Below are positions 10,384 through 54,455 of a stretch of 64,000 nucleotides of DNA, piece by piece. Source of the stretch: a bacterium (GTDB taxonomy: Bacteria; Patescibacteriota; Patescibacteriia; Buchananbacterales; GWA2-38-13); assembly GCA_030648715.1 (NCBI GenBank), contig JAUSGZ010000014.1, forward strand, positions 1,055-65,054, written 5' to 3'. The position numbers and the translations under genes were made by a program. The notes beneath the pieces were generated by a model. The model made no database searches. It was given only the letters and a program-made list of their open reading frames with translations, and was not told the DNA's origin. Position 1 is the stretch's first letter, and each line of letters begins with the position of its first letter.

Positions 10384-11651
10384 AACAGGCTCGAATAGCC
10401 CAGGGAGGGAGAAGATAATGAGAGAAAGATCTGGCGAGGGGATACTTGGCGTACGACGGGAAGTATGCGCCCATCTGTTCCGCGGAATGCGTAGTAGAGG
10501 TTGAGGATGGCCAATACACCTGCCAATAACCCTCCCACCATCCGCAGACGGAGCTGATCCGACATCCTCGATATCGCTACCGCCATCGCGACGATGAACA
10601 TCGGACCAAAAACCACATAGTACTTTGGCACACCGACGTCAAAACCGGCCAACAGGAATATCGGTAGCGCGCCAACAACCAGCAGATAGGAAACCGGAGT
10701 GTTGGGTGGAGTGAACGTAACGGTCAGCCAACGTCGCTCGCGATGAAAGGTAAAGAGCAGTGGAAAGGACGTCAAAATGATGAGGATACCAACGCGTAAG
10801 TTGACACTCCAAGAAGCCGTCCAGGTCGGATAAAGATAGCCGTGCATCACGGAAAAGGGAAACTGCCGGGAAGGTACGGCGGGAGTCGCGGATGATATTC
10901 CTTCGGTAATGAACGCAGGAAGCAGACGAAGGTAATGGACGGCCACTGGCGCCACAACCATAAAAAGCAGGGCCTCAAGACGCCACCAGCGCTGCCATTG
11001 GACGGGCGTGATCCTCCACCGTCGCTGCAAGAGGGAAATGGCGGCAGTTTGGGAGAACAACACTAATAGTAGACTCGGGTTGGTGTAGACACCAAGAGCT
11101 GCCGTTGCCCCATACCACCATAAGGACGACGAACGCCCGATCTGAAAATATTGATACAGCGCAAAATTCGTTGCCGTTACCAGCACAATACCGAGCATAA
11201 GTGGGCTGGTTTCCGTAGAATACTGTATCCCAAGGTAACTCGACCAAAACAAGATGATGGAGAGAAGACCGCAAGCAGCCCCTCCCATGCGCTTCGCGAG
11301 TGCATACATCAGCCCGATGCCAACCAGCGTAATAACCAACGAAAGCCCTGCCGTGGCAAGCGGTGTGCTGCCGAAAAGACGCACCCAAAAACCTAGAAGT
11401 AAGCGATAGACCGGGGACGACTGCGCCGGATCCAAAAAGATGGGGGCGCCGCCGCTCAGCAGGCGAGCGCTCTTGGCCACTATTATCTCTTCGTCGGGCG
11501 TATACGGGAGCGCCGCCTGTCGCCAACGCACAACGATACCGCCGATGACCGCTGCACCCAGGAAAAGCCAAAATAGCGGCCGTTGCCAGTCTCGCCGCGT
11601 TTCCGATAACGGTGTTGCCGGATGTCCGAGGTCGCTCATACAGGTCAACAA
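10350..11651 (-). CDS. GT-C fold glycosyltransferase, ArnT/PMT-like membrane protein
   Basis: 433 aa, polytopic. Loop-1 YTPDEEIIVAKSARL (DE motif) with a hydrophobic core. Confidence 0.7.
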   Translation of the reverse strand: MLTCMSDLGHPATPLSETRRDWQRPLFWLFLGAAVIGGIVVRWRQAALPYTPDEEIIVAKSARLLSGGAPIFLDPAQSSPVYRLLLGFWVRLFGSTPLATAGLSLVITLVGIGLMYALAKRMGGAACGLLSIILFWSSYLGIQYSTETSPLMLGIVLVTATNFALYQYFQIGRSSSLWWYGATAALGVYTNPSLLLVLFSQTAAISLLQRRWRITPVQWQRWWRLEALLFMVVAPVAVHYLRLLPAFITEGISSATPAVPSRQFPFSVMHGYLYPTWTASWSVNLRVGILIILTSFPLLFTFHRERRWLTVTFTPPNTPVSYLLVVGALPIFLLAGFDVGVPKYYVVFGPMFIVAMAVAISRMSDQLRLRMVGGLLAGVLAILNLYYAFRGTDGRILPVVRQVSPRQIFLSLSSPSLGYSSLLCQSSKHCAKQ

Positions 11652-17711: not shown

Positions 17712-17742
17712 CAGAGCGACCATCAGGCCGCTCTGTTTTATT
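17712..17742. terminator. bidirectional terminator hairpin
   Basis: cagagcg-accatcaggc-cgctctg followed by ttttatt. It sits between a convergent gene pair. Confidence 0.5.
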
Positions 17743-19312
17743 AACGCAGCTCGCAGCGGCGCGGGCTGTTCGCGGCAATGACCTGTTCGATGGTCACCGT
17801 CTTTTCAACCCCGCTGATGATATTCCCTTGAGCCCCGGGAACCGTCGGTTCCAGATAGGTGAACGGCCGCACCGCCTGCCGCGGCAAAAGTCCCATCAGG
17901 TACAGATCGAGATCGCTGTACGGCCGGCGAATGAGATTGACGTCCTCGGCCAGCTTGGAAAGGAATTTTCCGTCGCCCAGCGGCCGCCAGCCGGAACCGC
18001 CGAGCGGCGAGATGAACCCTGCGTAGTAACTCCAGTGAATGCCATCATCGCGGAGCAGCGCCACGGAGTCCTGATCGTCGGCGGTACGGAACTTCACTCG
18101 TGCTCCCCATTGGTGTCCCAATTCATGCAGTAGAAAGTTGTCCAGCCGCAGCGCATCGCTTTCTTCCGTCAAGGTGAACCGCCCCAGGTCGCCCATGACG
18201 ATAATGCCCTTCAGCTTGCCGCGGCTGCCGAACAGGTCGGCGGCATTCTGCAGCGGCAGCGAGAGCCCGGTTATCCCATTCGTGACCAACGTTTCGTGCC
18301 CTTCGTGGTTGGGTTTTTCCTCTTGGACGGCGAAGTTGGTGAAGAGAATGAGGAAATCGTACGCATCGGGATGCTGGTCGTAGAAACGCAACGCCGTTTC
18401 TTCCGTCAGGACGCGTCCGCCCTGCGGCGTGGCTCGGGAGAGTAACCCGTCGTCGGTGAGAACGACCGGGTCGGCGATTTCCGCAGCCCCCAGCTGTTGA
18501 GTCGCCCAAGCGTACGCTTCCGGCAAACGGGCGTGCACGGCGGCCAATGACTCGCGGTACGATGCCGCCAGCTCGCCGCGCGCCACCAAAATGGGTGCGA
18601 TGGTAATGGTCGTTCCGCCGCAATCCTGCGTGGACCACTCGCGCGGCGCCAATGGGTCGGCAATCCTTGTGTCCGCGCCAAAGATCTGGCGTGCCCGAGT
18701 GGGCAAGGTGCGCGCGCCAGTGACCACATCCTCCTTGCGGTACCCGTTGGCAAAAACCGCCGCCCAGTCCGCGAACGGCTGCAATAAATTTCCCTGTTTC
18801 CAATAGTATGTCCCTTGCCCGCGCACCTGATAGACGATGGAACTGGGCAATTGGTAGGTACGGTCCAGCGGCTCTCCAACCGCATAGTTTTCAAAAAATA
18901 CTTCCGGCAGGTCGACGACCCGCTGCTGCCAGCGCGACCCGAATATCGCGGCCGCCACTTCCGCGGAGGAGATCGGACGCAGCACGCCGCCCTGCTCGAC
19001 CGCGTACACCGTCGGGGCGCTGGGCACTTTCAACAACGCGGTGCCCGGCTTCATGGTCAGGTTGCGCCCCAGCGGGTAGCCCGCAAGGGTGAGCGCGGCG
19101 ACCGTCTGGACCGCGGAGAAATCATCCCCGTACCAGCTGCGATAGGTGGGCGCGTTGGGGAACGCATGGCGCACGCCCTGCGTATCCAAAAAATACACGG
19201 CGGAATTTCCGACCGCCTTGATGAGCGTACCCGCGGCGGCCGCCGGCAGAACGGGAACAACATGAACCACGACGAGGGCCACCGCTGTGCTCCACAGCGC
19301 GATTTTTTTCAT
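17741..19312 (-). CDS. secreted zinc-metalloprotease-like protein (HExxH)
   Basis: About 523 aa from MKKIALWSTAVALVVVHVVPVLPAAAAG (signal peptide; ATG at 19312). Contains HELGHQWGARV, an HExxH zinc-binding motif. The longer ORF start at 19441 lacks an RBS and signal peptide. Confidence 0.65.
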   Translation of the reverse strand: MKKIALWSTAVALVVVHVVPVLPAAAAGTLIKAVGNSAVYFLDTQGVRHAFPNAPTYRSWYGDDFSAVQTVAALTLAGYPLGRNLTMKPGTALLKVPSAPTVYAVEQGGVLRPISSAEVAAAIFGSRWQQRVVDLPEVFFENYAVGEPLDRTYQLPSSIVYQVRGQGTYYWKQGNLLQPFADWAAVFANGYRKEDVVTGARTLPTRARQIFGADTRIADPLAPREWSTQDCGGTTITIAPILVARGELAASYRESLAAVHARLPEAYAWATQQLGAAEIADPVVLTDDGLLSRATPQGGRVLTEETALRFYDQHPDAYDFLILFTNFAVQEEKPNHEGHETLVTNGITGLSLPLQNAADLFGSRGKLKGIIVMGDLGRFTLTEESDALRLDNFLLHELGHQWGARVKFRTADDQDSVALLRDDGIHWSYYAGFISPLGGSGWRPLGDGKFLSKLAEDVNLIRRPYSDLDLYLMGLLPRQAVRPFTYLEPTVPGAQGNIISGVEKTVTIEQVIAANSPRRCELR

Positions 19313-19455
19313 AATACCCCCTAGTATAGCAAGCGATGTGATGGGAGCAAACACAGCTGCGGCGTTGACAGACCGGCGCGGCGGGTCTACCATTCGCCCG
19401 CGCGACTGGAACGTTTCCAGCCCCTTCACAACCCACCCCAACCGGAGGACTTTCC

Positions 19456-22638: not shown

Positions 22639-24930
22639 CTACCGTTTCGCTTCTTCCGCCAGCTGTTCGGGAGTTTTTATCTTGAGCGTGCGCTCCTTGG
22701 GCTGCTGCGGACGGACCTTTGGGCCAGCCAAGGGGATGGAGAACGAGAACACGCTGCCTTTGCCTTCGCCTTTGGACTCGGCGCCGATCATTCCCTCATG
22801 GATATCCACGATTTTTTTTGCGACGTACAGGCCCAGGCCCGTGCCCTCGGTGTGCACCAGCGCCGACCCGCGCCCGCGGGAGAATTTCTGGAAGAGGTGG
22901 GCGATAGTTTCCTTACTCATCCCCATACCGCTGTCCTGGACCGAGAACGTCAGGTACCCGGCCGGCTGTGCCGACAGCACAACATGGATGCTCCCCTTTT
23001 CGGTGTACTTCACGGCGTTATCTATGAAATTGATCATCACCTCGTGCAGTTTGTCTTTATCAACCACGGGTTTGGGCAGCGGTTTCGCCGGCTTTTCCAG
23101 CACGAGCGTTAGCTTTTTCTTCTCCGCCTGCGGCTTAAGGCTCTCCACGACGCCGGCGGCCATTTCATAACAGTCGGTCGGTTCCCACGTGTAAACCTGG
23201 CGGCCTGATTCAATGCGCGAAATGTTGAGCAGATCTTCCACCAAACCAATGAGCCGCTCGTTGGCTTCATAGACTTTGTCCAGCTGCTTGTGGATGAGCG
23301 GCGGGACCCTGCCGAAGGCCTGCTCGTTGATCATGGAGATAAACCCCTTGATGATGGTGAGCGGCGTACGCAGCTGGTGGCTGGCGATGGATATGAACTC
23401 GGACTTAGTGGCATCCAACCGCCGCAATTCGGCGTTCGCCGCCCGTAATTCCTGCGTGGCCTTGCGGACCTCATCTTTCAAAACTTCCGCGAAGTGCTTT
23501 TGCTCTTCATAGAGCAAGGCGTTCTCAATGGAGACTGCCAACTGCCCCGAGACGATCTTGAGCACCCGCAAGTCCTGGCTATTGTACGGCTCGCCTGATT
23601 TCTTGTTGCCGATGACAACCACCCCGATGAGCTTATCCTGTAAGCGGAGAGGGACGATGACTGCCAGATCCTGCTCGTGCATCGCCAGCATCAATTCAGG
23701 TTTAACGAACAGCTGGAGATTTTCTCCGTTCTCGTACTCGGTCTTGCGTTCTTCAATGACGAAAATGCCGGGCGTGCGCTTGAACTGTTCGAACATCACC
23801 CGCTCGTTGCCGCGCGCCAGCGCTTCGGCAACTCCTGGCGGGAACCCCTCCTGGTGAGCGATGTACAGTTTGCTTTTTTTATTGATGAGCGCCACGCCGA
23901 GCTTGTCCGCATGGAACGCTTCCGTCAAGGTGTGCGAAATGGACTGCAGGAGGTGGGCGAAATCCAGAGTGGACGATGTAATATGGTTGACCCGCGCGAT
24001 GAGCACATCCGGGTCGTAGGATTTTTTGTACAGGAAAGTATTGGTCGCGCGCTCAATGATGTCCCGCAGCGGTTTGTAAAAGACCGTCACCAACACCGCC
24101 AGAATGACGCCGGACAAAATGTTGGACTGCAGCCCCGCTAATTCTGCAAAGAGATAGGTAAAGAGCGCTGAAATGATCGAGAAAATACCGGTGATGATGA
24201 AAACGATGGCGCCGAAGGCAATGGTCCTAAAGATAATTACCCGAATATCCATGAATCGGTATTTCGCTATAGCGTAAGCCGTGAAGGAAACAAAAAATAT
24301 AGAACTTGCTGAATCGAGTGGGATAAACTCATTAATACCGAAAAGCGGAAGAATAACACTTACGGAGGTGGCTATAGTAGCGTAAATACTCAAGCCAATA
24401 AGTACATAGAGAATCTGTTTCCGCCGAACTCCACTAGATTGGTAAAATTTACTAAAGAGATAAAATAAACTGAAAAATAAAATTGAAATAATATATAAAC
24501 CGTAAATTGGAAAAAGTAATCCGTATCGCGCGTCGCCACCGCCGAAGGTGATGTTCTCTGCACCGACCAAAATAAGGTTTGAAAACTGTGCCAACAGTGC
24601 AAAAAAAGAACCGCAGAGATAAAGAATCCCGGTCAATTGTCGGCTGAATCGTCCGGTAGCAAAGTACAGAATCCATGCCACACACGCGGAAACAAGAAAA
24701 ACAGCGGTAGCATAACCGTTACGCAATAAAGCTAAACTAGGAAAAACGCCCGTTAAGAAATTATTAATCACCCAGTACCCAGAAATGAGTGCGAAAATAA
24801 AAAATAATTTTGCTGACAATATTTTCCGTTTCGAATATAAAACGATGAAAGCCAGAGCAACGTTCAAAACGCCAACCAAAAGCAAGAAATAAACCATATC
24901 TAGATCTAATGGACTTCTTTCCGGAGGCAA
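22639..24930 (-). CDS. sensor histidine kinase: N-terminal ~9-10 TM sensor domain, GAF domain, HisKA, HATPase_c
   Basis: 763 aa. H-box SHQLRTPLTIIKGF, N/G1/G2 boxes (NAVKYT, DSGMGM, GTGLGLYVAKK), GAF-like region, and a long polytopic N-terminus. The N-terminal ~260 codons (24150-24930) are conspicuously AT-rich while the kinase core is GC-rich. Confidence 0.85.
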   Translation of the reverse strand: MPPERSPLDLDMVYFLLLVGVLNVALAFIVLYSKRKILSAKLFFIFALISGYWVINNFLTGVFPSLALLRNGYATAVFLVSACVAWILYFATGRFSRQLTGILYLCGSFFALLAQFSNLILVGAENITFGGGDARYGLLFPIYGLYIISILFFSLFYLFSKFYQSSGVRRKQILYVLIGLSIYATIATSVSVILPLFGINEFIPLDSASSIFFVSFTAYAIAKYRFMDIRVIIFRTIAFGAIVFIITGIFSIISALFTYLFAELAGLQSNILSGVILAVLVTVFYKPLRDIIERATNTFLYKKSYDPDVLIARVNHITSSTLDFAHLLQSISHTLTEAFHADKLGVALINKKSKLYIAHQEGFPPGVAEALARGNERVMFEQFKRTPGIFVIEERKTEYENGENLQLFVKPELMLAMHEQDLAVIVPLRLQDKLIGVVVIGNKKSGEPYNSQDLRVLKIVSGQLAVSIENALLYEEQKHFAEVLKDEVRKATQELRAANAELRRLDATKSEFISIASHQLRTPLTIIKGFISMINEQAFGRVPPLIHKQLDKVYEANERLIGLVEDLLNISRIESGRQVYTWEPTDCYEMAAGVVESLKPQAEKKKLTLVLEKPAKPLPKPVVDKDKLHEVMINFIDNAVKYTEKGSIHVVLSAQPAGYLTFSVQDSGMGMSKETIAHLFQKFSRGRGSALVHTEGTGLGLYVAKKIVDIHEGMIGAESKGEGKGSVFSFSIPLAGPKVRPQQPKERTLKIKTPEQLAEEAKR

Positions 24931-25928
24931 TAGTTGATATTAAACCACGCAACGGTTCTATCCATCGCCTTCTCAAAACTTAAAAAACCATTATCGAGAT
25001 GCTGTTTCATTGAGCTGGAATCAACCTCTAGGCTGGACGTTACCATTGAAAGGCTCGACCGAGTAATCATTGGTCTTGTCTTTATGCCTAACAATCGGTG
25101 ATAATTCTCAAACAATAAGGAGGCGACATAGCCTAAGACGTACGGAATATTCACGACGACGGCTTTTGCATTACAGGCTGGTTTAAAAAATGTCACGAAC
25201 TGTCGCCACGTAATCTTAGCATCGTCGCAGAGATTCATTTTGGTGCCGCTGGGTAATCCATCGATGCGATCTAAAACATTCCTGACGAAAAAGGCAAAAT
25301 TCTCAACGTACAATAACGGTATATATGTATCCTTCTTACCAGGCAGTAAAAGAAAACCTTGCTTTAGGTTGTGGATAATTTCTGGAATCAAGGTTTTATC
25401 ACCTGGACCGAACAGCCACGCTGGCCGAAGAATAACAACCTTAAAATATTCACGACTATCAACGGCGGCTAACTCGCCAAGAAGTTTCGTTTTTTGGTAG
25501 GGATGGCCCGAAGAAGTGTAAGGAGTAGTTTCGGAAAGTACCGTGTGTTTCCCGTGCTTATAGTCCAAAACATCAATGGTACTTATGTAGAGGAAATTTT
25601 TAATCGCAGCTAGACGCGATGCCTCCAGTAACCGACGCGTCCCATTAACGTTAACCTCATAAAAAATTTCCTTGGGACCCCAATCAGATACGACAGCCGC
25701 TGAATGGATAACATGCTCTATCTCATTTTTCTCTAAAAGGTCAAACAGGGCTTCTGCACTGCTCAAATCACCTTGTAACAGGGTAATCCTCGGATTATTG
25801 ACGAATAATTGAGTGTGTACACTAATTTTTCTTACCAAGGCGTATACTTGGTAACCATGCAAAGCCAACACTTTGCATATAGAGCGCCCCGCAAACCCAT
25901 TCGCTCCGGTTACTAAAACTTTTGCCAC
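24906..25928 (-). CDS. NAD(P)-dependent epimerase/dehydratase-family reductase (extended SDR)
   Basis: 340 aa. VLVTGANGFAGRSI Rossmann, YQKTK (YxxxK). It lies in a lower-GC region and is co-directional with the AOS gene and the histidine kinase (25-bp overlap with the kinase start). Confidence 0.75.
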   Translation of the reverse strand: MAKVLVTGANGFAGRSICKVLALHGYQVYALVRKISVHTQLFVNNPRITLLQGDLSSAEALFDLLEKNEIEHVIHSAAVVSDWGPKEIFYEVNVNGTRRLLEASRLAAIKNFLYISTIDVLDYKHGKHTVLSETTPYTSSGHPYQKTKLLGELAAVDSREYFKVVILRPAWLFGPGDKTLIPEIIHNLKQGFLLLPGKKDTYIPLLYVENFAFFVRNVLDRIDGLPSGTKMNLCDDAKITWRQFVTFFKPACNAKAVVVNIPYVLGYVASLLFENYHRLLGIKTRPMITRSSLSMVTSSLEVDSSSMKQHLDNGFLSFEKAMDRTVAWFNINYCLRKEVH

Positions 25929-25939
25929 GTAGGTGTTCG

Positions 25940-27160
25940 TTACGACCCTTGCCTTTTTTCTAATTTTTCAAGTAGCTTATCAATATGCTGCTTCGTATGG
26001 CTTGCTGTCAGGGTCAAACGTAGCCGTTCGTAGCCGACCTCGACTGCGGGTCGCCGAATGGCCGGAGCCAAAATCCCCGCCTTATATAGCGCATCGGAAA
26101 GTTCAATTACTTTTTTCTCGGAGCGTACCATTAGCGGAACGATCGCTGTCTCGCCGGGTATGGTCTCCAGACCTAAGCGCTGCAGCCCTTGACGCAGGTG
26201 GGTAGCATTCTCTTTCAGTTGTTTTCGGAGACCATGCCCATCGCGGATGATCTCTAGAGTCTTGAGCAGCCCAGCAACAAAGGCCGGCGGTATTGGGTCT
26301 GAAAAAATATAGCCGCGTCCGGTCACGCGAATGTAATCCGCCAAATCTTTTGAAATGGCGGCGACGTAGCCGCCAATACTCCCCCATGCCTTCGTGAAAC
26401 TCGCCATTACCAAATCTACTTTCCCTGCGACACCAAGGTGAGCGGCGGTACCCTCGCCGTTCGGTCCTAATACACCGGCACCATGGGCGTCGTCTACGTA
26501 TAACACTGCGTCATACTCCTGGCTTAAATCGACCAATCGAGGAAGATCAGCAAAGTCGCCATCCATGCTAAAAACGCCGTCGGTAACGATCGCCTTGCGA
26601 ACTATTTTACGACGGCGCAGCTCTCGTTCGAGTCCGTCGTAGTCGCGGTGTTTATAGATCACTCGTTCTGCATACGACAGGCGCACTGCATCAACGATAC
26701 TGGCATGGTTCAGCTGGTCACTGAAAATGGCACCCGGTTTGTCTTTCTTGATCAATGGAAAATATGGGAAAGGGTCTGCCAAATACCGTATGACACTTGT
26801 ATTCGCGAGAAAGCCAGAGGAGAAGGTCACCGAATCCTTAACCTGCAAGAAATTCGCCAGTTCCCTCTCAAATTGCTGTTGAACGTCCAATGAACCCGAC
26901 AGTAGCCGAGTGCTCCCGGAGCCAACGCCGTAGCGTTCAACCGCTTGCTGAACTGCAAGTTTAATTTCAGGATTATTTGCCAACCCCAAATAGTTATTGG
27001 AACAGAAGGAGAGATATTTCTTACCCCCAATGATAATTTCCGGAGCGGTCGAGGGGCCGGAAATTTCTGGTATGCGAGGGTATAAATTGTTTTCGCGGAG
27101 GTGACGAACGACTTCTGAAAAATACCCAAGTTTGCCATCCTGCATACCTTCATCCGACAT
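25940..27160 (-). CDS. PLP-dependent alpha-oxoamine synthase family acyltransferase (BioF / Kbl / serine palmitoyltransferase / CqsA-like)
   Basis: 406 aa. VDDAHGAGVLG and the PLP-lysine motif SFTKAWGSIGGY are diagnostic of the AOS family. Subfamily cannot be assigned from sequence alone. Confidence 0.8.
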   Translation of the reverse strand: MSDEGMQDGKLGYFSEVVRHLRENNLYPRIPEISGPSTAPEIIIGGKKYLSFCSNNYLGLANNPEIKLAVQQAVERYGVGSGSTRLLSGSLDVQQQFERELANFLQVKDSVTFSSGFLANTSVIRYLADPFPYFPLIKKDKPGAIFSDQLNHASIVDAVRLSYAERVIYKHRDYDGLERELRRRKIVRKAIVTDGVFSMDGDFADLPRLVDLSQEYDAVLYVDDAHGAGVLGPNGEGTAAHLGVAGKVDLVMASFTKAWGSIGGYVAAISKDLADYIRVTGRGYIFSDPIPPAFVAGLLKTLEIIRDGHGLRKQLKENATHLRQGLQRLGLETIPGETAIVPLMVRSEKKVIELSDALYKAGILAPAIRRPAVEVGYERLRLTLTASHTKQHIDKLLEKLEKRQGS

Positions 27161-27331: not shown

Positions 27332-27901
27332 ATGACACAGGAAAAGCCGAACCCAAGCTCCGCACCAGGAGTCGTACTGCGCACAGCCATTCTCCTATTT
27401 ATCTATGGCATCGCTGGTCTTATCTACCTTTTTTGGGTTATCCAAGGAAGCTACGGGGCGATTTTCCTCGCCATTGACGGCTTGGTTTTTATCTTGGTGA
27501 TATTGACGGGTTCAATATGGACAATTATGGCTGGACTTTCATTAATTTCTAGAAAAAAACTTCCTACCAACAATTTAGGATGGGTGGCTACCCTCACAAT
27601 ATTGCCAGCATCTTTTGCAGCATACGATATCGCAAGCTATTATGGTATGCCAATTATTGGGGCATGGGCGGCACTTATTGGAGGTTTAATAATTTTTTAT
27701 AAAAAACTTTCAAAAGATATTAGATTGGTTATGATTTTAATCGCAGTACCTACGGGCATTCTGGCATACGATATTTTGAGACATAGCAGCAAAACACAAA
27801 TCATTGGCGACCTTACCACTTCAGGATTGTTTATTTTTGTAATCATCCTCTACCATCACCTACAAGCTTCTATCAAAGTCCTTAAACGACAGCAAGAGTA
27901 G
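27332..27901 (+). CDS. hypothetical small polytopic membrane protein (5-6 TM), AT-rich
   Basis: 189 aa ORF on plus strand, hydrophobic throughout, terminator directly downstream. Confidence 0.5.
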   Translation: MTQEKPNPSSAPGVVLRTAILLFIYGIAGLIYLFWVIQGSYGAIFLAIDGLVFILVILTGSIWTIMAGLSLISRKKLPTNNLGWVATLTILPASFAAYDIASYYGMPIIGAWAALIGGLIIFYKKLSKDIRLVMILIAVPTGILAYDILRHSSKTQIIGDLTTSGLFIFVIILYHHLQASIKVLKRQQE

Positions 27902-27915
27902 TAAATTTTGGGGGC

Positions 27916-27951
27916 AAAAAAATCCCGACAATGTTACACTGTCGGGATTTT
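27916..27951. terminator. bidirectional rho-independent terminator
   Basis: aaaaaaatcccgacaatgttacactgtcgggatttt. Confidence 0.65.
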
Positions 27952-27977: not shown

Positions 27978-30752
27978 CTAGTACTCAAGGCAGTAGAGAT
28001 CGTCCAGAGTCGAGTCGGAACCAGGTGTGAACGGCCCAGGGGCCGGGGGGTCAGTGGTACCAAGAAAAAGCCAACCGAGCGTGAAAATGGGGTCGGAGAT
28101 ATCTAAGTCACCAGAGTCATTGGCGTCCGCGGCGTCAGCACAGTCCACTCGGCCACCACCGGTAAAGAGGTAGCCAAGAGTGTTGACGGAATCAGAGATA
28201 TCAACTGCGCCGTCAGTATTGGAGTCTCCGCGACGGAACGAAATCCCGCCGGTGACTACGACCATCACTTCATCCATACCGACGTTGCCGGCGGGGTCGC
28301 GAACGATGAGAGTAATGGAGAATTGGCCTGACGGCAGGTCAACTGTTGGTTGAACCCCGGCGGCGAGCAACCCATCCTCAAGCATCCACCAATACTGCAG
28401 CGGCGCATCACCGTCAGGGTCGGTTGTTGCCGTGCCATCCAACGCAACGGCGCCGAAGCCATCAATGTCTGCGGACACCTCCTGGTCCGGTCCGGCATTG
28501 ACAATCGGCGACTGATTGCCGTTCCACTGGTCTTGCCAGAAGGTTAAGTTACGCAGATAGACGGTCGAGCCGGGCAGGAGCGATTGAAGCTCAAACTGGA
28601 ACGTCACCATCTGACCGTGCAGACGACGAATGTCGCGGAGCCCAGAGTTCAGGTAACCCTGACCTAAGGTAAGGTCCGAAAGTACCTGTAACACAGGATG
28701 GAAGGCATCGGTGGTGGTAACTGAACACTCAAATGTTGCGGGAACTTCCGCTTCGGTGAAGCTGTATTCGAAACTCACATAGTCCCAGGTTGATTGGACT
28801 ACGAGCGGGATGGAGTAACGAGCGAAGACCCCTTCCTGTACCTGTTGACCGCCACCGCGTCCACCACCTAACGGAAGGTTAAGGAGGTACTCACCGATAT
28901 CGGTTATACTACCGCAGTTGTTGCCCAGACTGCACTCGAGATTACCGAGGTCGAGACCGACCGTGGTTGTCGGAAACGAGACGAACGGCTCTTGACACTC
29001 TTGGTAGTTGTCAAACCCAAATACACCGCTATCGTCACCGGCCAACCTTCGACACAGTGAAAGTTCCGAGAACTGCAGCGTACCAGTGGCCTCACACATA
29101 CTTGACAGAGGTCGATTCCGATCTGGATGTGCAAGGTCAGTTACCAATATCGAAGCGCCAAAACCAACAGTACCAAAGAGTACCTCGGCAAAACACCATG
29201 GTTCCTGCCTAAGCAATGGATCGCGCCCTATGAGAGTGGTATTAAGATACCAATCAACCCGATGGCTGACCCCAGGAACATTGACCCACAGATTGGCAAA
29301 GTGAGTGCTTAGATTGGTGAGCCCGTGATAGGAATCTACATACGTCCCCACTCTCCGGAGCGCTGGTACCTCCTCATTGAGCAATCCGCTGCCAACCCAG
29401 TCCGGCGTATCCAATTGTGTCACTTGGGCTGGTGGGAACACATTCGGCACAGTTACGCCTTGAGCCAAATTGATGGCCGCAGTCGTGACAATCCGCGACC
29501 CGAGACTATGACCGATGAAATGCACCGGTCCTGTATAGCCGTCGGGCAATAGCACCCGAAGACTGCTCGCAAGGCGCTGTGCCTGTGGCTCGATACCAGT
29601 TACTAGCGGCTCTAACTGACTTGCCTCGGTAATCCAATCCCAGGCAAGAATGTTAACCCCACCAGGTACCCGGGAAGAAATTTGGTGAGCCATCTGCAGC
29701 ATCCAACTGTTGAGCTGGTCGCCGCCAAAAATCGGCGGGTCCCATCCGTGCACAATCACGGCGGTGCCATATCTCGGATCGAAGTGGGGATCACACGGGA
29801 AAAAGCCGGTCCAAGATCCTTTTTCTTGCGGAGTCGTGCCGGGGACATAGATTTGCATCTGCGTAAAGCTACCGGGCGTTGCCCGAATGCAAATCTCGGA
29901 TGTTGGCAGGGAAACCCCCACGGAGTTGATGGCTCGTACCCGGTAGCAGATATCTCTGGCTTCCGGTAGTGGAACATCTGCTACCTGTATGGTAGATGAG
30001 CTAAAGGGTATTTCCGGTGGTAATGTCAACCACTCGGAGCAGTATCCGACTCTCCTTTCGATACGGTAACGGTCTACCCACAAAAGACTCGGATGCCATT
30101 CCAGTATTGCAATGCCGCTACCCTCGGGGTGCTGAACGGTAAAGCCACCCGGAGCGTCGGGTAGTTGAGGCGTACCTGACACCGAAACGCGGACCTTCGC
30201 GAGTGCCCAACTCTCATCATCAAGCGCTTGCAACCCACCGGCAAGAAAATTGATGATCATGCCTGAATCGACATGTGGGGAGCTAAAACGTAGCTCGTAC
30301 TGTGAGTAGGCATGATTGGCATGCAGAAGGGCACCAGTTCCCGCAGGATGGTCACCGCCCGGGTACTCATCAGGATACGCCTGTCGATTGCCGGCACTCC
30401 CGGTCGTACTGAACGTCGTGCGGAGCAGCTTTCGCACGTCTCCGACATTGATCTCCCACACGTCCGGACCGGGCACGCCGTTTCCATCCCAGGTGCGCAA
30501 CAGCCACAGATCGAACTCGATGGTGACTTCACCATGCGATGGAAGCTGCTCCAGCGACAGACTGACAGTCTGGTTTCCAAACGAGCCAAGAATTGGCTCA
30601 TCAGTTGGGGAGGAGCGTATTGCCCCCGACGACCACTCGCGGCCGACGCCGCTTTCGAAGTTGGTCGAGTAGACCACCTGCTCCTGCGCGATGACAGAGA
30701 GTGAAGGAATTGCAGCGAACGCTGCCACAAACAACATCTGCATCCAGAACAT
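27978..30752 (-). CDS. large secreted multidomain protein: signal peptide, beta-rich/FN3-like region, alpha/beta-hydrolase (lipase, GHSLG) domain, PKD-like region, C-terminal dockerin-like repeats
   Basis: 924 aa. N-terminal MFWMQMLFVAAFAAIPSLSVIAQ signal peptide, VHFIGHSLGSRIV (GxSxG nucleophile elbow), C-terminal DSNTDGAVDISD / DANDSGDLDISD (type I dockerin-like Ca-binding repeat pair). Confidence 0.7.
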   Translation of the reverse strand: MFWMQMLFVAAFAAIPSLSVIAQEQVVYSTNFESGVGREWSSGAIRSSPTDEPILGSFGNQTVSLSLEQLPSHGEVTIEFDLWLLRTWDGNGVPGPDVWEINVGDVRKLLRTTFSTTGSAGNRQAYPDEYPGGDHPAGTGALLHANHAYSQYELRFSSPHVDSGMIINFLAGGLQALDDESWALAKVRVSVSGTPQLPDAPGGFTVQHPEGSGIAILEWHPSLLWVDRYRIERRVGYCSEWLTLPPEIPFSSSTIQVADVPLPEARDICYRVRAINSVGVSLPTSEICIRATPGSFTQMQIYVPGTTPQEKGSWTGFFPCDPHFDPRYGTAVIVHGWDPPIFGGDQLNSWMLQMAHQISSRVPGGVNILAWDWITEASQLEPLVTGIEPQAQRLASSLRVLLPDGYTGPVHFIGHSLGSRIVTTAAINLAQGVTVPNVFPPAQVTQLDTPDWVGSGLLNEEVPALRRVGTYVDSYHGLTNLSTHFANLWVNVPGVSHRVDWYLNTTLIGRDPLLRQEPWCFAEVLFGTVGFGASILVTDLAHPDRNRPLSSMCEATGTLQFSELSLCRRLAGDDSGVFGFDNYQECQEPFVSFPTTTVGLDLGNLECSLGNNCGSITDIGEYLLNLPLGGGRGGGQQVQEGVFARYSIPLVVQSTWDYVSFEYSFTEAEVPATFECSVTTTDAFHPVLQVLSDLTLGQGYLNSGLRDIRRLHGQMVTFQFELQSLLPGSTVYLRNLTFWQDQWNGNQSPIVNAGPDQEVSADIDGFGAVALDGTATTDPDGDAPLQYWWMLEDGLLAAGVQPTVDLPSGQFSITLIVRDPAGNVGMDEVMVVVTGGISFRRGDSNTDGAVDISDSVNTLGYLFTGGGRVDCADAADANDSGDLDISDPIFTLGWLFLGTTDPPAPGPFTPGSDSTLDDLYCLEY

Positions 30753-30919
30753 CGGAGTACCTTTCTTCCGCGCGAAGCGGAAATCTGCGAACCGAAAAGG
30801 GCATTTTCGGTTCTTGCTTGTTGTGTTGTCAACGAGCCATCAATAATTGACTGCACAAGCGTTCACCCGCGCAGCCAATCAGGAAATATAGGTAATACGG
30901 ACGGAAACGTCAAGCCGTG

Positions 30920-31240
30920 GCGCCCCTCACCCAACCCTCTCCCGCGAGGGGAGAGGACAAAAACATTGACGCATAACCACCCTAACCCTTTCCCCTCCTA
31001 CGCCAAGGCTTCGGCGAGCAGGCCACTAGGGGAGAGGGGAAATTAGAATTGTTCATCGGTTCTTCTCTACCTCTCATCTCATCCCCCTCACCTGTCCTTT
31101 CGGACATCCTTCCTGCCCCGCGACTGCGGGGTCCCTCAAGGGAGAGGCAAGTTAGGAAGGATTTATCTCCACCCTCACCCGAGCCCTCTCCCCTCCTACG
31201 CCAAGGCTTCGGCGGGCAGGCCACTAGGGGAGAGGGAAAT
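30920..31240. repeat. cluster of GC-rich palindromic (REP-like) elements, including two near-identical ~50-bp copies
   Basis: cccctcctacgccaaggcttcggcg[a/g]gcaggccactaggggagaggg occurs at ~30993-31042 and ~31189-31237. A shorter hairpin ccctctcccgcgaggggagagg sits at ~30935-30956, and ccccgcgactgcgggg at ~31116-31132. The stems are ccctctcccc/ggggagaggg. Confidence 0.7.
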
Positions 31241-31244
31241 AAGA

Positions 31245-33038
31245 TTACCGATCGTAAAGGGAAACAATCTCCTTGGCGTAGTGGCGTTCGATGACCGAAC
31301 GGCGGAGTTTCTGGGTGGGCGTGACTTCGTCGCGCTCGGCCAAAAATTCATCGGGCAAGAGCGCGAAGCGACGTACCTGCTCAAAATCGGGCCGGTCGGC
31401 AAGCGCTTTGGTGATGCGTTCTTGGTAGAGCGCGCGCACGCCCTTGTGGTTCAGCAGTTCTTTTCTATCTGCCGGCCAGCCTTGCGTCTGCGCTTCTTGC
31501 AGCAACGCGGGCCACACCGGCACCACCAAGGCAACAACATACGGCTTCCCGTGGGCAACAGCCATAGACTGCGCGATGAGCGAGTCGTTGTTCATCGCGT
31601 TCTCCAACACTGCCGGCCAGATATTTTTTCCTCCCGCCGTTACTAGCATTTCTTTTCGGCGACCGATAATAAACAGGAACCCGTCCGGGTCAATAAATCC
31701 CAGATCGCCGGTGTGCAGCCAACCGTCGGCGTCAATGAGCTCACGCGTTGCCCCTTCGTCTTGCCAATAGCCGGCGCAGATGTTTTCCCCGCGCGCCAGA
31801 ACTTCCTTGTCGTGCGAGATTCTCACCTGCACGCCGGAAAGGGGAATGCCGACGCTGCCGAACTTCCGTTTCGCTGGGCTATTGACCGTGATGACCGGTG
31901 AAGTTTCGGTCAGGCCATAGCCCTCATAAATTTGCACCCCCACGCGGTCAAAGAATTTCGCCAATGGGGGATGCAGCGCCGCCCCGCCGGAAATGGATAG
32001 CCGCAACCGCCCGCCCAGCGCGCGCAGGACCTTCGCAAACACGAGACGGCTGGCGAGTTGGTGCTGCCAGGTGCCGTGGCGTTGGCGCAACGCCCAGGTG
32101 AACAGCCGTTTCCGCCAGGCAAGGCCGGCGTTCGCCTTGGCCCAGACGGCATCGTGGAATTTTTCAAACACGCGCGGCACCGCAATGAGAATGGTGGGAT
32201 GCACCTCCAATAAATTTTCCTTCAGGGTGGAGGGATTTTCGGCAAAGGCGATCGTTGCGCCATGCGTCAGCGGCATCAGGTACCCGGCCATGTGCTCCAA
32301 TACGTGGGACAGCGGCAGGAACGACAGAAAAAGGTCTGTCGGGTAGACCGGGATAGCCAACATGGATGCTGTTACATTGGAAAGAAAATTTTTGTGGGTC
32401 AGGACCACTCCGTGCGGCAAGCCGGTGGTGCCCGATGTATAGACGATGCTGGCCGCATCATCGGACTGGCGGGGCGTTGGCGCTGACAACGGAGCCGCGG
32501 AAATAATATCATCCCAGCGGTGGCAGGCAACGGCAGCGAGCTGTGGCACGACGGCATTCGCCACCACCAGGTGCCGCACCGTAGGCAATCCCCGTAGCGC
32601 TTCCACAGTTTTTTTCAGCAACCCCTCCCCTGCCGCCACCACGATGCTGGCGCCGGAATGTTCCAGCACGTAGCGGATGAGCGCCGAACTGAAGGTCGTG
32701 TGCACCGGTACCGTTACCCCGCCGGCAAACATCGTCGCCAGGTCCGCAACAACCCACGCCGAACCATTCGGGGCGACGACGGCCACGCGGTCGCCCGGCT
32801 GCAAGCCGAGTTGGCGCAAGCCCGCCGCGCACCGCCGCACCTGGTCGGCGAGCTGGGCGTAGGTGATGCCGTAGTACTGGCCGCCTCGTTTTTCCCGCAA
32901 CGCCACATGGTCGCCATGGAGTTTGGCGACCTCAAGAACGGTTGACGGGATAGTTATTGACATGAGACTGAAGAAAATTGGTGGGTAGGTAGTACGGGTC
33001 ATTGCGAGGAGTCCCGCCAACTCGGGACGACGCGGCAA
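31245..33038 (-). CDS. long-chain fatty-acid--CoA ligase (AMP-binding / ANL superfamily)
   Basis: 597 aa. AMP-binding motif IVYTSGTTGLPHGVVLTHKNF, YGLTE, and TGDLG...DRKKE-like C-terminal motifs. Confidence 0.85.
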   Translation of the reverse strand: MPRRPELAGLLAMTRTTYPPIFFSLMSITIPSTVLEVAKLHGDHVALREKRGGQYYGITYAQLADQVRRCAAGLRQLGLQPGDRVAVVAPNGSAWVVADLATMFAGGVTVPVHTTFSSALIRYVLEHSGASIVVAAGEGLLKKTVEALRGLPTVRHLVVANAVVPQLAAVACHRWDDIISAAPLSAPTPRQSDDAASIVYTSGTTGLPHGVVLTHKNFLSNVTASMLAIPVYPTDLFLSFLPLSHVLEHMAGYLMPLTHGATIAFAENPSTLKENLLEVHPTILIAVPRVFEKFHDAVWAKANAGLAWRKRLFTWALRQRHGTWQHQLASRLVFAKVLRALGGRLRLSISGGAALHPPLAKFFDRVGVQIYEGYGLTETSPVITVNSPAKRKFGSVGIPLSGVQVRISHDKEVLARGENICAGYWQDEGATRELIDADGWLHTGDLGFIDPDGFLFIIGRRKEMLVTAGGKNIWPAVLENAMNNDSLIAQSMAVAHGKPYVVALVVPVWPALLQEAQTQGWPADRKELLNHKGVRALYQERITKALADRPDFEQVRRFALLPDEFLAERDEVTPTQKLRRSVIERHYAKEIVSLYDR

Positions 33039-33165
33039 TCCGACCTCGCAACCGCGGGGTCGCCCTCTGCGGAGGCGCAGGGTCTCCGTGTAGTTCGGGG
33101 GATCCCTCGACCCGGCTCGGGATGACCGCGGCGGTCAGATTGCTTCGCTGCGCTCGCAATGACGA
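32997..33165. repeat. ~165-bp structured palindromic intergenic element with terminal inverted repeats gtcattgcgag / ctcgcaatgac
   Basis: Terminal inverted repeats at 32999-33009 and 33153-33163. Internal hairpins gtcccgccaactcgggac and cgcggcaatc...gattgc. The plus-frame translation contains the ...LRCARNDE... string characteristic of this kind of repeat. Confidence 0.6.
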
Positions 33166-33264
33166 AAGTTATTTTACAGTCTCAACAGAGGGAATAAGAT
33201 TGCCGCCCAACCCTGCTCGCCGTCGAAGCGGCGGCAAGCAAGGTTCGGCGGCATTCCCCCACCG

Positions 33265-34122
33265 CTACGCTGCCTCTTTCTCCAGCTCCTGAATGAACTC
33301 GTCGACCTTACGGAAAATTTCCTCGCGGCGGTCCGAATCCGGCAAATTGTGGTAGCGGCCGTTCAACCAGTACATCTTTTTGTGGTTGGACCCCAGGTGC
33401 TGGTGGATGTACGGGGCACTCTTAGGATGCACCACCGGATCCTGGTCGGCCTGGATCATCAAGGTCGGCGTCGTGATCCCCTCCAGCGTAGGAATAGTGC
33501 GCGTACGGATGAAGCGCAAAAACTCGCGCAGGCAGCGGATGGGAATGACCGGGTAGCTCACCTGGTCGGACAGGTCAATGTAGTCCACCTTGTACTCGCG
33601 ACCGGATTTTCTGTGGTAGCTCATGAACCAGGCGTAGGTGTAGGTACGCAGCAGAATGAACCAGTGGCCGCGCAGCTTGATGGGGGTACCGAGCGAGACA
33701 ATTCCCGACACCAGGTCCGGATACCGGTGAGCCAGCCAGAATGCAAGGTTGCCGCCGAACGAATTCCCCACGACGATCACTCGCTTCACATAGCGGCGCA
33801 GGTGGTGCAACGCCTCCTCTGCGGATCTCGCCCAATCCTCGCCGGTCGTTTTGGACATCTCCTTTGGCGACGTCCCGTGGCCCGCGATGAGCGGCGAGTA
33901 GACCGTGAAGCCCCGGTCCACCAAAAATTTGCTTAATTCACGGAACTGGTGCGGCGTGCTGGTGAAACCATGCAGCAGCAGCAGGCCGACCTCGGACCCC
34001 TTATCTATAAAAAGAGGCTCGCCGCCTTTCATAAAAGGGAGGGAGCCTGAAATGCTCGCCGAGGCAACGGTTACCGCGTCAGCAAGCGTCGGACCGAATT
34101 TTGTGGGTATCGCATTAGCCAT
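33265..34122 (-). CDS. alpha/beta-hydrolase fold esterase/lipase
   Basis: 285 aa. HGFTSTP (oxyanion HG), nucleophile elbow GNSFGG, C-terminal acid/His region. Confidence 0.75.
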   Translation of the reverse strand: MANAIPTKFGPTLADAVTVASASISGSLPFMKGGEPLFIDKGSEVGLLLLHGFTSTPHQFRELSKFLVDRGFTVYSPLIAGHGTSPKEMSKTTGEDWARSAEEALHHLRRYVKRVIVVGNSFGGNLAFWLAHRYPDLVSGIVSLGTPIKLRGHWFILLRTYTYAWFMSYHRKSGREYKVDYIDLSDQVSYPVIPIRCLREFLRFIRTRTIPTLEGITTPTLMIQADQDPVVHPKSAPYIHQHLGSNHKKMYWLNGRYHNLPDSDRREEIFRKVDEFIQELEKEAA

Positions 34123-34428: not shown

Positions 34429-34500
34429 CTCCCTGTAGCTCAACGGATAGAGCAGCGCCGTCCTAAGGCGATGATGGGGGTTCAATTCCCTCCAGGGAGA
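34429..34500 (+). tRNA. tRNA-Arg (anticodon CCT), unusual C1-G72 and G27.A43
   Basis: CTCCCTG acceptor / CAGGGAG-A, D arm GCTC-AACGGATA-GAGC, anticodon arm GCGCC-GTCCTAA-GGCGA, T arm GGGGG-TTCAATT-CCCTC. 72 nt with no encoded CCA. An AT-rich region lies immediately upstream. Confidence 0.65.
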
Positions 34501-36267: not shown

Positions 36268-36341
36268 GGGCCTGTAGTACAGTGGTAATACGCCGCATTC
36301 GCATTGCGGAGGCGGGGGTTCGATTCCCCCCAGGTCCACCA
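36268..36341 (+). tRNA. tRNA-Ala (anticodon CGC), CCA encoded
   Basis: GGGCCTG acceptor with G3.U70 (Ala identity), anticodon arm CCGCA-TTCGCAT-TGCGG, T arm GGGGG-TTCGATT-CCCCC, 3' CAGGTCC-A-CCA. Followed by the terminator hairpin aatcccgtacgcgggatttttt (36341-36367). Confidence 0.85.
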
Positions 36342-43024: not shown

Positions 43025-43057
43025 GAGGCTGGCACACCCAGCCTCGCATTTTTTTAT
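43025..43057. terminator. bidirectional rho-independent terminator
   Basis: gaggctgg-cacac-ccagcctc followed by gcattttttta. Confidence 0.6.
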
Positions 43058-54448: not shown

Positions 54449-54455
54449 GCTAATA

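Follow-up and report, generated by a model that had tools for sequence, protein, structure and literature searches.

A pancreatic-lipase-family protein with a dockerin-like C-terminal module from a Patescibacteria bacterium

Does a secreted lipase with dockerin-like repeats belong to a cohesin–dockerin scaffold, as cellulosomal enzymes do, or does its C-terminus serve another kind of attachment? The question is raised by a gene in a 64-kb stretch of DNA, hereafter the window, for which the initial annotation described a secreted 924-residue protein with a GHSLG lipase/esterase domain and a terminal pair of dockerin-like repeats, and considered its display on a scaffold.

The source is an ultrasmall, groundwater-type CPR/Patescibacteria bacterium of the Parcubacteria group. 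The isoleucyl-tRNA synthetase (IleRS) of the window is 86% identical to that of Parcubacteria group bacterium Gr01-1014_31, its other named matches are from Patescibacteria, and the histidine kinase shows 61% identity and synteny with a Patescibacteria MAG. Mis-binning or contamination was rejected, as the housekeeping genes on the contig are of CPR type. The reading frame at 27978–30752 is real: no other start codon precedes its ATG within the open frame, a Shine–Dalgarno-like GAAAGG lies about 8–12 nt on the 5' side of the ATG, and the product is identical to the hypothetical protein Q7S23_01295 of an NCBI MAG. From the N-terminus, the protein consists of a signal peptide, an N-terminal module of unknown type, an FN3 domain, the lipase/PLA1 domain, a β-sandwich, a PKD domain and the dockerin-type module. 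The features of the locus are as follows.

30803..30913, minus strand: two sigma-70-like promoter matches (30885–30913 and 30803–30832), upstream of the ATG, 10/12 each
27978..30752, minus strand: complete coding sequence, 924 aa, with ATG at 30752 and stop codon at 27978–27980
30687..30752, minus strand: probable Sec signal peptide (residues 1–22), predicted cut after V-I-A, from hydropathy and homologue leaders
30165..30683, minus strand: uncharacterised N-terminal module (residues 24–196), predicted to be β-rich, with 16 domain copies in 13 proteins
29877..30155, minus strand: FN3-like β-sandwich (residues 200–292), from a weak fn3 match, a myomesin FN3 match and the model
29073..29867, minus strand: α/β-hydrolase domain of the pancreatic-lipase/PLA1 family (residues 296–560), from profile, model and triad
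Residues 335–337, minus strand: HGW, in the catalytic domain
29505–29507, minus strand: Ser416 in GHSLG, invariant in 41 relatives
29409–29411, minus strand: Asp448, at least 90% conserved in 41 sequences
29262–29264, minus strand: His497, at least 90% conserved in 41 sequences
28836..29072, minus strand: Cys-rich and Gly-rich linker (residues 561–639; Cys567, 586, 607 and 613), structure of low confidence
28518..28835, minus strand: family-specific accessory β-sandwich (residues 640–745), always found after the catalytic domain
28263..28517, minus strand: PKD domain (residues 746–830), PF18911
27981..28244, minus strand: dockerin-like C-terminal module (residues 837–924, 88 residues), from profiles, conservation and the model
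28191–28226, minus strand: Ca2+ loop 1, DSNTDGAVDISD (residues 843–854), conserved
28140–28142, minus strand: conserved Cys871, in 34 copies
28092–28127, minus strand: Ca2+ loop 2, DANDSGDLDISD (residues 876–887), conserved
27990–27992, minus strand: Cys921, end of G911-x-D-x-T-x-D-x-L-x-C921 in the Pro-rich tail, in 34 copies
27919..27951, minus strand: terminator-like hairpin with U-tract, 16-nt arms, 94% complementary

The terminator-like hairpin lies 27 nt past the stop codon and is common to the convergent gene at 27332–27901; its RNA fold has an energy of -30.4 kcal/mol (z = -6.2). The promoter matches are only suggestive, since the scan as a whole rose barely above the shuffled expectation. 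Two REP-like repeats reported near the gene are present as 64-nt copies, 92% identical, at 30978–31041 and 31176–31239, and the PT-linker protein noted at the window start is likewise genuine, though the window edge truncates its reading frame. The proposed 'moderate-GC island' is not borne out. The lipase gene has a GC content of 55.5% (window mean, 58.7%) and a GC3 of 0.58 (housekeeping genes, 0.73–0.87), but a syntenic relative, locus L001, shares this GC3 pattern; a recent island acquired by horizontal transfer was therefore rejected.

The protein begins with a hydrophobic stretch ending in V-I-A (MFWMQMLFVAAFAAIPSLSVIA, followed by QEQ). The Kyte–Doolittle mean is +1.84 over residues 1–22 and -0.58 over residues 23–60, and the mature N-termini of homologues align with that of the window protein. 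The leader is without the basic n-region of the equivalent homologue leaders, which have K/R. We class the signal peptide read in the initial annotation as probable.

The N-terminal module is mobile between architectures (16 domain copies in 13 proteins), and its 12-sequence profile matched nothing in Pfam or the PDB. It is poorly modelled in the AlphaFold whole-chain prediction, which was built on a 7-sequence alignment, had a mean pLDDT of 54 and was dropped in favour of a domain model; Foldseek with the whole chain returned only generic multi-β-sandwich proteins. FN3 and PKD were the two accessory domains that had been suggested for a profile check. The fn3 profile does match, but weakly (13 bits), with a myomesin FN3 domain at E = 0.0045 and seven AlphaFold strands at pLDDT 72–85. 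The PKD domain is clear, with PF18911 scoring 35.1 bits against a curated cut-off of 27 and a pLDDT of 72–90. The region comprising residues 561–745 is present in 111 lipase relatives. Its accessory β-sandwich is predicted with seven strands at a pLDDT of about 60–78, and a profile of this domain had no match in either Pfam or the PDB.

The serine-hydrolase nucleophile elbow reported earlier is present as VHFIGHSLGSRIV, with Ser416 invariant in 41 diverse relatives. The triad Ser416–Asp448–His497 is conserved, and its positions follow β-strands as expected in the domain model (pLDDT 90.1, pTM 0.91), which adopts an α/β-hydrolase fold nearest to members of the PF00151 family. A 41-sequence family profile identified PLRP1 in the PDB at 1.7e-14, and its best 15 PDB matches are all pancreatic-lipase-family chains (1.7e-14 to 8e-7). 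The single sequence scores 21.3–24.3 bits against Pfam Lipase (PF00151), under the gathering score of 27, and relatives P0003, P0004, P0006 and P0013 have precomputed PF00151 matches. Structural matches of the catalytic domain have 17–21% identity, and the closest include venom PLA1; Foldseek with this domain gave generic α/β-hydrolase matches only. These data support the lipase reading and narrow it to a lipase-type domain of the pancreatic-lipase/PLA1 family, as predicted from profile and structural matches.

In pancreatic-lipase-family enzymes, the segment between Asp and His carries the β9 loop and the lid. This segment has 49 residues in the window enzyme, which implies that there is almost no lid. 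It is even shorter than in PLA1s (70 residues in mPA-PLA1α), whose lid and β9 loops are themselves shorter than in triacylglycerol lipases (PMC9031518). Like insect PLA1s, which have short active-site loops and no mammalian C-terminal PLAT domain (PMC9031518), the window protein has no Pfam match to PLAT, and a different β-domain follows its catalytic domain.

Among the closest known systems is the PF00151 family itself, which includes pancreatic lipase, PLRP1/2, lipoprotein lipase, PS-PLA1/mPA-PLA1 and vespid venom phospholipase A1. Shared with it are the order Ser–Asp–His and the motifs HG(F/W) of the oxyanion hole, VN…W/V-D-W, GHSLG, (I/V)T-x-LD-P and H-x-(R/V)-x-x-(W/Y)-Y. In contrast to the characterised members found in the literature, which are all eukaryotic, the window enzyme is bacterial (CPR) and carries its own β-sandwich together with FN3, PKD and dockerin-like modules. 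Our literature search found no characterised bacterial PF00151 enzyme.

The C-terminal module contains the D-x-N-x-D-G…D-I-S-D repeat pair recognised in the initial annotation, DSNTDGAVDISD and DANDSGDLDISD. The two loops start 33 residues apart and have D/N at positions 1, 3, 5, 9 and 12. Across 34 non-redundant copies, conservation extends to the Ca2+-ligand positions, the two cysteines and the tail, so the loops are not a chance pattern. AlphaFold predicts helices at 852–863, 872–875 and 886–897, each main helix coming after a loop. The tail has a model pLDDT below 50 at residues 904–918, and its residues P905, G911, D913, T915, D917 and L919 are surface-exposed and very highly conserved.

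Whether these repeats are dockerin repeats was evaluated at the level of the sequence and of the family. Alone, the window module gives no match to Pfam Dockerin_1, even at E <= 10. Among its relatives, 10 of 13 match PF00404 (best, 4.7e-7), and two independent profiles of the module family both had type-I dockerins as their best PDB matches (E = 6e-6 and 1.4e-4). Dockerin_1 is also matched by 12 of 80 scanned proteins (68 module-bearing proteins and 12 neighbours). The alternative of thrombospondin-like or generic Ca2+-binding repeats fits less well: no TSP_3 match is listed for the module, EF-hand families match 5 of the 13 relatives, and EF-hand chains rank below dockerins in both PDB searches. 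The dockerin identity thus holds for the family profiles and not for the single sequence, and we regard the C-terminal repeats as a probable dockerin-type double Ca2+-loop module, an assignment supported only at family level.

The module shares with type-I dockerins (PF00404), such as those of CelS/Cel48 and Xyn10B from C. thermocellum, a core of about 60 residues built of two EF-hand-like loops in tandem, each 12 residues long and followed by a helix, and a location at the C-terminus of a secreted enzyme. The recognition pair at positions 10–11 of C. thermocellum dockerins is S-T, whereas both loops of the window module have I-S, and its subtype has a conserved F-x-R-G-D lead-in. Relative to solved dockerins, it adds an invariant Cys ahead of loop 2 and a conserved tail, P-x-P…G-x-D-x-T-x-D-x-L-x-C, some 27 residues long. 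The alignment of solved dockerins ends at profile position 61 of 87, and they have no Cys/Pro tail. Judged from its sequence, the module is a distinct dockerin-like subtype, defined by the conserved Cys871…Cys921 pair and the Pro-rich tail.

A dockerin-like fold raises the possibility of a true cohesin–dockerin system, in which the module would dock onto a cohesin scaffold or anchor encoded elsewhere and the lipase would be displayed on the CPR surface in a cellulosome-like manner. The ranking of type-I dockerins by the family profiles, the PF00404 matches of the relatives and the C-terminal position, shared with cellulosomal enzymes, are in line with this, and the clustering of module genes (up to four per locus) recalls cellulosome gene clusters. 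Against it, no cohesin was detected in the 40 ORFs of the 64-kb window or in the 8 ORFs beside the Patescibacteria homologue in L001, and Cohesin is not among the 25 families listed for 80 proteins from module-bearing loci. Nor did these loci reveal a recurrent non-module neighbour family, as clustering gave antisense shadow ORFs only. A second module copy in L001 was considered as a partner or stand-alone protein, but it duplicates the 3' end of the gene and has no start codon, and the idea was rejected for that reason. Furthermore, the cargo here is a lipase, the cargo proteins of the module are not CAZymes as they are in cellulosomes, and the Cys/Pro tail is missing from all solved dockerins. 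We consider a cohesin–dockerin system unlikely. The dockerin-like fold is supported, and scaffold display is unsupported.

The distribution of the module points to another role. Its breadth was taken from a metagenome scan, as a word-indexed search with the 88-residue module scored only 10 candidates. Environmental metagenomes yielded at least 197 confirmed matches. Among the matches listed, the module occurs on 110 ORFs in 80 loci, three of which ORFs are lipases; it is at the extreme C-terminus in 67 of the 110, and it is also found near N-termini, in multiple copies and in up to four bearing genes per locus. Its partner domains, among the listed families, include PKD, FG-GAP, FN3, LTD, Kelch/NHL and Kazal, with no glycoside hydrolases. 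The module is widespread and promiscuous in metagenomes, on many non-CAZyme extracellular proteins, which weakens the premise that a dockerin-like module would be unusual outside cellulolytic Firmicutes.

Within the lipase family, 29 of the 45 closest relatives end in the dockerin-like module, and remoter relatives end instead in PEP-CTERM-like (18) or F[YF]RL[RK] (42) termini. The module resembles PEP-CTERM/exosortase tags in this terminal position and in being carried by a large variety of unrelated secreted proteins, whose genes often cluster. It differs from them in having no transmembrane helix or basic tail, in being a folded, predicted Ca2+-binding domain rather than a cleavable signal, and in being sometimes multi-copy or close to the N-terminus.

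These variable positions and copy numbers could also suit a domain that has no binding partner, a generic EF-hand pair serving Ca2+-dependent folding, stability or secretion competence. The EF-hand proteins SCaMC-1 and polcalcin follow close behind dockerins in both PDB profile searches, EF-hand Pfam families match some members, as described above, and no partner was found in the window, the homologue locus or the module loci. The predominance of the terminal position among the listed ORFs and the PEP-CTERM-like replacement in paralogous lipase clades argue instead for sorting or anchoring, and the very high conservation of exposed tail residues suggests an interaction surface. For these reasons a partner-less domain appears to us improbable.

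Peer et al. (2009, FEMS Microbiol Lett) reportedly surveyed cohesin- and dockerin-like modules across all three domains of life. The present module resembles the non-cellulosomal dockerin-like modules of other phyla, which often have no identifiable cohesin: in both cases dockerin/EF-hand Ca2+-binding repeats sit on secreted or surface-located proteins of bacteria that are ultrasmall, host-associated or predatory. In giant 'Dockerin-type' proteins of Omnitrophota, the repeats have been read as attachment modules (bioRxiv 10.1101/2023.11.21.568195). Those proteins have long arrays, whereas here there is one terminal module, with a probably Cys-clasped tail and a lipase fusion. No report of dockerins in CPR bacteria was found in our literature search.

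On balance, we think it rather probable from the sequence evidence that the protein is a secreted lipid-hydrolysing enzyme with a Ca2+-folded attachment tag, and not a cellulosome component. The enzyme would be an extracellular lipase or phospholipase A1 with an open, lid-poor active site, and would release free fatty acids and lysolipids by cleaving acyl esters in the membrane lipids, or other lipids, of neighbour or host cells. The β-sandwich, PKD, FN3 and N-terminal modules may provide reach and contacts with the substrate or surface. The C-terminal module would fold round two Ca2+ ions, with a Cys871–Cys921 disulfide probably tying the Pro-rich tail back to the inter-loop linker, and would serve as a general-purpose extracellular attachment tag, to the cell's own envelope or to a target surface.

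Directly upstream of the lipase gene, on the same strand, are genes for a FadD-like fatty-acid–CoA ligase and an MGL/carboxylesterase-like hydrolase. One could speculate that this adjacent ligase activates the freed fatty acids after their uptake, and that such uptake would aid membrane building in a group reported to be without lipid synthesis. Despite the reported absence of fatty-acid and phospholipid synthesis, CPR membranes consist of ordinary acyl lipids and are enriched in lysolipids, which were suggested to stem from phospholipase A (PMC7242380). Fatty-acid capture from neighbouring cells is a plausible but unproven role of the enzyme.

The same activity could have a purpose other than salvage, as an offensive membrane-damaging phospholipase against host or prey, or as an esterase on polyesters, waxes or acylated polymers. 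Venom PLA1 is among the closest structural relatives, the FadD-like neighbour is not conserved beside the homologue in L001, and related lipase domains are found in free-living Planctomycetota, Verrucomicrobiota and Lentisphaerae. Moreover, at E <= 1e-10 the lipase family has only 30 representatives among 1.84 billion, and a family so rare cannot be how CPR bacteria in general acquire lipids. In this genome, on the other hand, the gene adjoins the ligase and esterase genes, and an offensive role is compatible with salvage, as lysis also frees lipids; the two are not separable at sequence level. We rate a purely non-salvage function as very unlikely.

The most specific form of the salvage reading is that the Cys-clasped dockerin-like module fixes a lid-less PLA1 where a CPR episymbiont and its host cell touch, and that the enzyme there would strip sn-1 acyl chains from host lipids and so supply fatty acids, activated by the FadD-like ligase, and the CPR lysolipids. 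Taken as a whole this is doubtful, and we put it forward tentatively. If it is true, CPR lipid acquisition would have its first named enzyme, and the dockerin fold a new branch that does not depend on cohesin and serves environmental bacteria as a general tag for surface attachment.

The analysis delineates an uncharacterised bacterial branch, distinguished by an accessory β-domain of its own, in a pancreatic lipase family that is otherwise centred on animals. It also delineates a widespread dockerin-like Cys/Pro-tail subtype that Pfam under-detects. The lipase is of moderate interest as a candidate lipid-scavenging enzyme of CPR bacteria. The suggestion of phospholipase A as the source came without a candidate enzyme (PMC7242380), and the tagged PLA1-like lipase described here is one that can be assayed directly.

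The lipase gene runs on the minus strand from an ATG at 30752 to a stop codon at 27978–27980 and encodes 924 residues, matching the coordinates and length in the initial annotation. The protein is identical to NCBI MAG entry Q7S23_01295, which is encoded on a 73.9-kb contig and whose sole annotation is hypothetical. Residues 1–22 are hydrophobic, end in V-I-A and are followed by Q-E-Q, and homologues have similar leaders and mature N-termini that align with that of the window lipase. The signal peptide read earlier is supported by the hydrophobic leader and its equivalents in homologues, but a basic n-region is missing. From these features, secretion of the 924-residue protein is predicted with good support.

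Features of the window discussed here.
1 to ~400, minus strand: secreted PT-linker protein, cut by the window edge; its signal peptide is followed by a (TP)n linker and by 'ITVTFPNGGEQWVRGSTYRITW…'
592–663 (minus strand), 34429–34500 (plus strand) and 36268–36338 (plus strand): three tRNA genes
24906–25928, downstream of the lipase: OleD-like SDR (reductase)
25940–27160, downstream of the lipase: BioF/Kbl/serine-palmitoyltransferase-family alpha-oxoamine synthase, syntenic with L001, a Patescibacteria MAG locus
30165–30683: N-terminal module of the lipase (residues 24–196), with conserved motifs in 13 proteins
30978–31041 and 31176–31239: REP-like repeat copies, 64 nt each, 92% identical
31245–33038, upstream of the lipase, same strand: FadD-like fatty-acid-CoA ligase
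33265–34122, upstream of the lipase, same strand: MGL/carboxylesterase-like hydrolase

Both the PT-linker protein at the window start and the repeats beside the lipase had been noted before and are present. The repeats (window 30925–31244) lie upstream of the lipase, in an intergenic region of 492 bp; each 64-nt copy has a CCCTCTCCCC…GGGGAGAGGG stem, and a third, partial copy is found at ~30942–30967. We read them as REP-like palindromic elements. The proposed moderate-GC island is unconvincing: the gene has a GC content of 55.5% versus 58.7% for the window, and its low GC3 (0.58 versus 0.73–0.87 for housekeeping genes) is also seen in the relative's syntenic locus. GC3 differs widely between the genes of this one contig (0.45 to 0.87), and the orthologous genes of L001 repeat the pattern (0.33 for the alpha-oxoamine synthase, 0.80 for the giant gene).

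The claimed serine-hydrolase nucleophile elbow, VHFIGHSLGSRIV, is found in the translation. As a single sequence, the protein matches Pfam Lipase (PF00151) below the gathering score of 27: the full-length protein reaches 21.3 bits and the segment on its own 24.3. A 41-sequence profile of residues 296–560, searched against the PDB, returned pancreatic-lipase-family chains in all top 15 positions, led by PLRP1 (1.7e-14) and followed by PLRP2, lipoprotein lipase and pancreatic lipase; hornet venom PLA1 matched at 8e-7. In the alignment, Gly336, Asn367, Trp371, Trp373, His415, Ser416, Gly418, Trp501 and Tyr502 are invariant, while His335, Asp448 and His497 are at least 90% conserved. Because of these conserved motifs and profile matches, residues 296–560 belong by fold and motifs to the pancreatic-lipase/PLA1 family, the single sequence scoring below the Pfam curated threshold, and are predicted to work like such a domain. 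The original lipase reading is thereby narrowed to this family. The catalytic-domain family is rare: an exhaustive search with residues 296–560 among 1.84 billion representatives gave 310 matches at E ≤ 1e-3, of which 30 reach ≤ 1e-10 and 8 reach ≤ 1e-30. A distant homologue (28% identity over residues 272–432) lies at 10001–10426 of a locus from a gut Akkermansia muciniphila MAG (L007).

In the pancreatic-lipase family, the β9 loop and the lid lie in the stretch of chain that links the catalytic Asp to the catalytic His; in human pancreatic lipase, Asp176 and His263 are spaced by 87. The corresponding segment of the window lipase is 49 residues long, compared with 70 in mPA-PLA1α (Asp178 to His248). 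Lids have 12 residues in PLA1s versus 22–23 in triacylglycerol lipases, and β9 loops 13 versus 18–19 (PMC9031518). The short Asp-to-His segment therefore suggests an open, essentially lid-less active site. Within this family, a lid-less site goes with phospholipase A1-type activity, which we predict for the window lipase.

Several accessory modules surround the catalytic domain. A β-region (residues 561–745) directly follows it in 111 relatives; residues 644–739 are modelled as a seven-strand sandwich, and a profile of the region found no match in the PDB. Mammalian lipases have PLAT at this place. Of the domains proposed for checking, PKD (residues 746–830) scores above the Pfam threshold, and FN3 (about 200–292) is weak by sequence with reasonable support from predicted structure. 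The N-terminal module has no match in Pfam or the PDB and is common to 13 proteins of very different architecture, including one tandem pair (P0024). Its strongly conserved motifs are FLGxFGNxxVxLxL, DLxIIRTWDGN, GPDxWE, TTFSN, QAYPDxYPGG and ESWGLDNV. The module may represent a new domain family.

The two C-terminal D-x-N/D repeats noted earlier, DSNTDGAVDISD (843–854) and DANDSGDLDISD (876–887), are kept in 34 non-redundant relatives. The 88-residue window module itself has no match in Pfam, Dockerin_1 included, and as a single sequence gives a marginal type-I dockerin match in the PDB (E = 0.9). With a 13-sequence profile, eleven dockerins come out on top among PDB chains (best 2y3n_B, E = 6e-6); with 33 sequences, nine dockerins lead (1.4e-4 to 6e-3), with the EF-hands of SCaMC-1 and polcalcin behind. 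Dockerin_1 (PF00404) matches 10 of the 13 relatives (best 4.7e-7) and EF-hand families 5 of 13. Asp or Asn occupies positions 1, 3, 5, 9 and 12 of both loops, and a helix is predicted after each. Since family profiles, PF00404 matches, loop residues and predicted helices agree, we assign the module as a dockerin-type double F-hand; the dockerin reading thus holds for fold and family, though not for the single sequence, which stays below the curated threshold. Unlike solved dockerins, the module has a ~27-residue tail as conserved as its loops, and PDB dockerin alignments reach only position 61 of the 87 in the profile. Pro905, Gly911, Asp913, Thr915, Asp917, Leu919 and Cys921 (34/34) of the tail are conserved, and Cys871, just before loop 2, is present in 33 of 34 copies. 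Cys871 and Cys921 may form a disulfide clasp, the tail being modelled at low confidence.

The module ends 29 of the 45 closest catalytic-domain relatives, and at least some of the others (for example, P0039 and P0043) look like shortened gene calls. In remoter lipase clades, counted among relatives P0046–P0166, 18 proteins end in a PEP-CTERM-like anchor and 42 in a short F[YF]RL[RK] motif; this 'FYRLR' end could be a further sorting signal or the final strand of a conserved domain. At least 197 copies of the module were confirmed in a metagenome scan. Eighty loci hold 110 module-bearing ORFs, only three with a lipase domain; the module is the extreme C-terminus in 67, and some carry it close to the N-terminus or more than once. 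Several loci have two to four module genes adjacent, and L019, L023, L065 and L089 each show 3–4 such ORFs side by side. Most carriers are probably not CPR (Patescibacteria), because the median GC of these loci is 65%. The domains that accompany it (PKD, FG-GAP, FN3, LTD, Kelch/NHL and Kazal) are of the kinds usually seen in adhesive or extracellular proteins. Judged by these architectures, the module would behave as an all-purpose tag for extracellular attachment or sorting. For this subtype, the view that such modules are rarely met beyond cellulolytic Firmicutes is wrong.

Display of the lipase on a cohesin–dockerin scaffold had also been proposed. No Cohesin match was found in the 40 ORFs covering the window or in the 8 ORFs beside P0003, the lipase homologue of L001. 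Nor does Cohesin appear in a list of 25 families drawn from 80 module-locus proteins; as the list stops at families with two members each, one or two occurrences are possible. Clustering of neighbours at module loci gave no recurrent non-module family. In the window and the loci covered, the cohesin-scaffold model is unsupported.

The window isoleucyl-tRNA synthetase shares 86% identity with its counterpart in 'Parcubacteria group bacterium Gr01-1014_31', and its next named matches are in Patescibacteria, Parcubacteria and Komeilibacteria. A 7TM-GAF histidine kinase four genes from the lipase is 61% identical to its L001 copy, and L001 has the same order of lipase homologue (P0003, 41% identity), alpha-oxoamine synthase and kinase. 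The synthetase matches, kinase identity and synteny thus place the window in a CPR genome. Downstream of P0003, a start-less, near-identical duplicate of its last ~108 codons, comprising the dockerin-like module, lies at L001 12949–13272; this second module copy is thus no separate gene. A small Cys-rich secreted ORF (12401–12883, opposite strand) lies between the two, and the arrangement (L001 12284–13275) looks like an insertion or duplication scar.

The remaining window genes include housekeeping genes and many envelope-glycosylation genes. Three PMT_2-family glycosyltransferase paralogues are present (8737–10383, 10350–11651 and 13274–14920). Pfam gave no match for four large ORFs (17741–19441, 43054–45120, 49994–52063 and 52070–54562), and all but the first lie in stretches where the AT skew is very strongly positive, reaching 0.46. 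Besides tRNA, an Rfam scan of the window found no family at gathering score.

The lipase gene appears self-contained, with suggestive promoter-like sites 50–160 nt upstream of its start and a strong hairpin with a U-tract 27 nt downstream (z = -6.2). Acyl-lipid-type genes occur on both flanks (22639–27160 and 31245–34122). The best NCBIfam matches of the upstream ligase are fatty-acid-CoA ligases (FadD11-like, 2.5e-90, below cut-off), and the second upstream gene encodes a cytoplasmic Hydrolase_4/carboxylesterase-type α/β-hydrolase. The kinase and alpha-oxoamine synthase are syntenic with L001, where the ligase–lipase adjacency is not kept. The flanking genes may form an amino-lipid or lipid-salvage set, which, if true, would be out of the ordinary in CPR bacteria.

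CPR bacteria were reported by Probst et al. to lack lipid synthesis, to have acyl lipids unusually rich in lysolipids and probably to obtain lipids from other bacteria, possibly via phospholipase A (PMC7242380). A secreted, tagged, lid-poor PLA1-like enzyme could obtain lipids for the CPR cell, and the window lipase is a plausible agent of such acquisition; since the family is rare, this would not be a general route. What is new here is a bacterial pancreatic-lipase-family enzyme with its own accessory domain and a putatively Cys-clasped dockerin-like tag, both of kinds already known. The window lipase matters mainly as a candidate for lipid scavenging in CPR bacteria.
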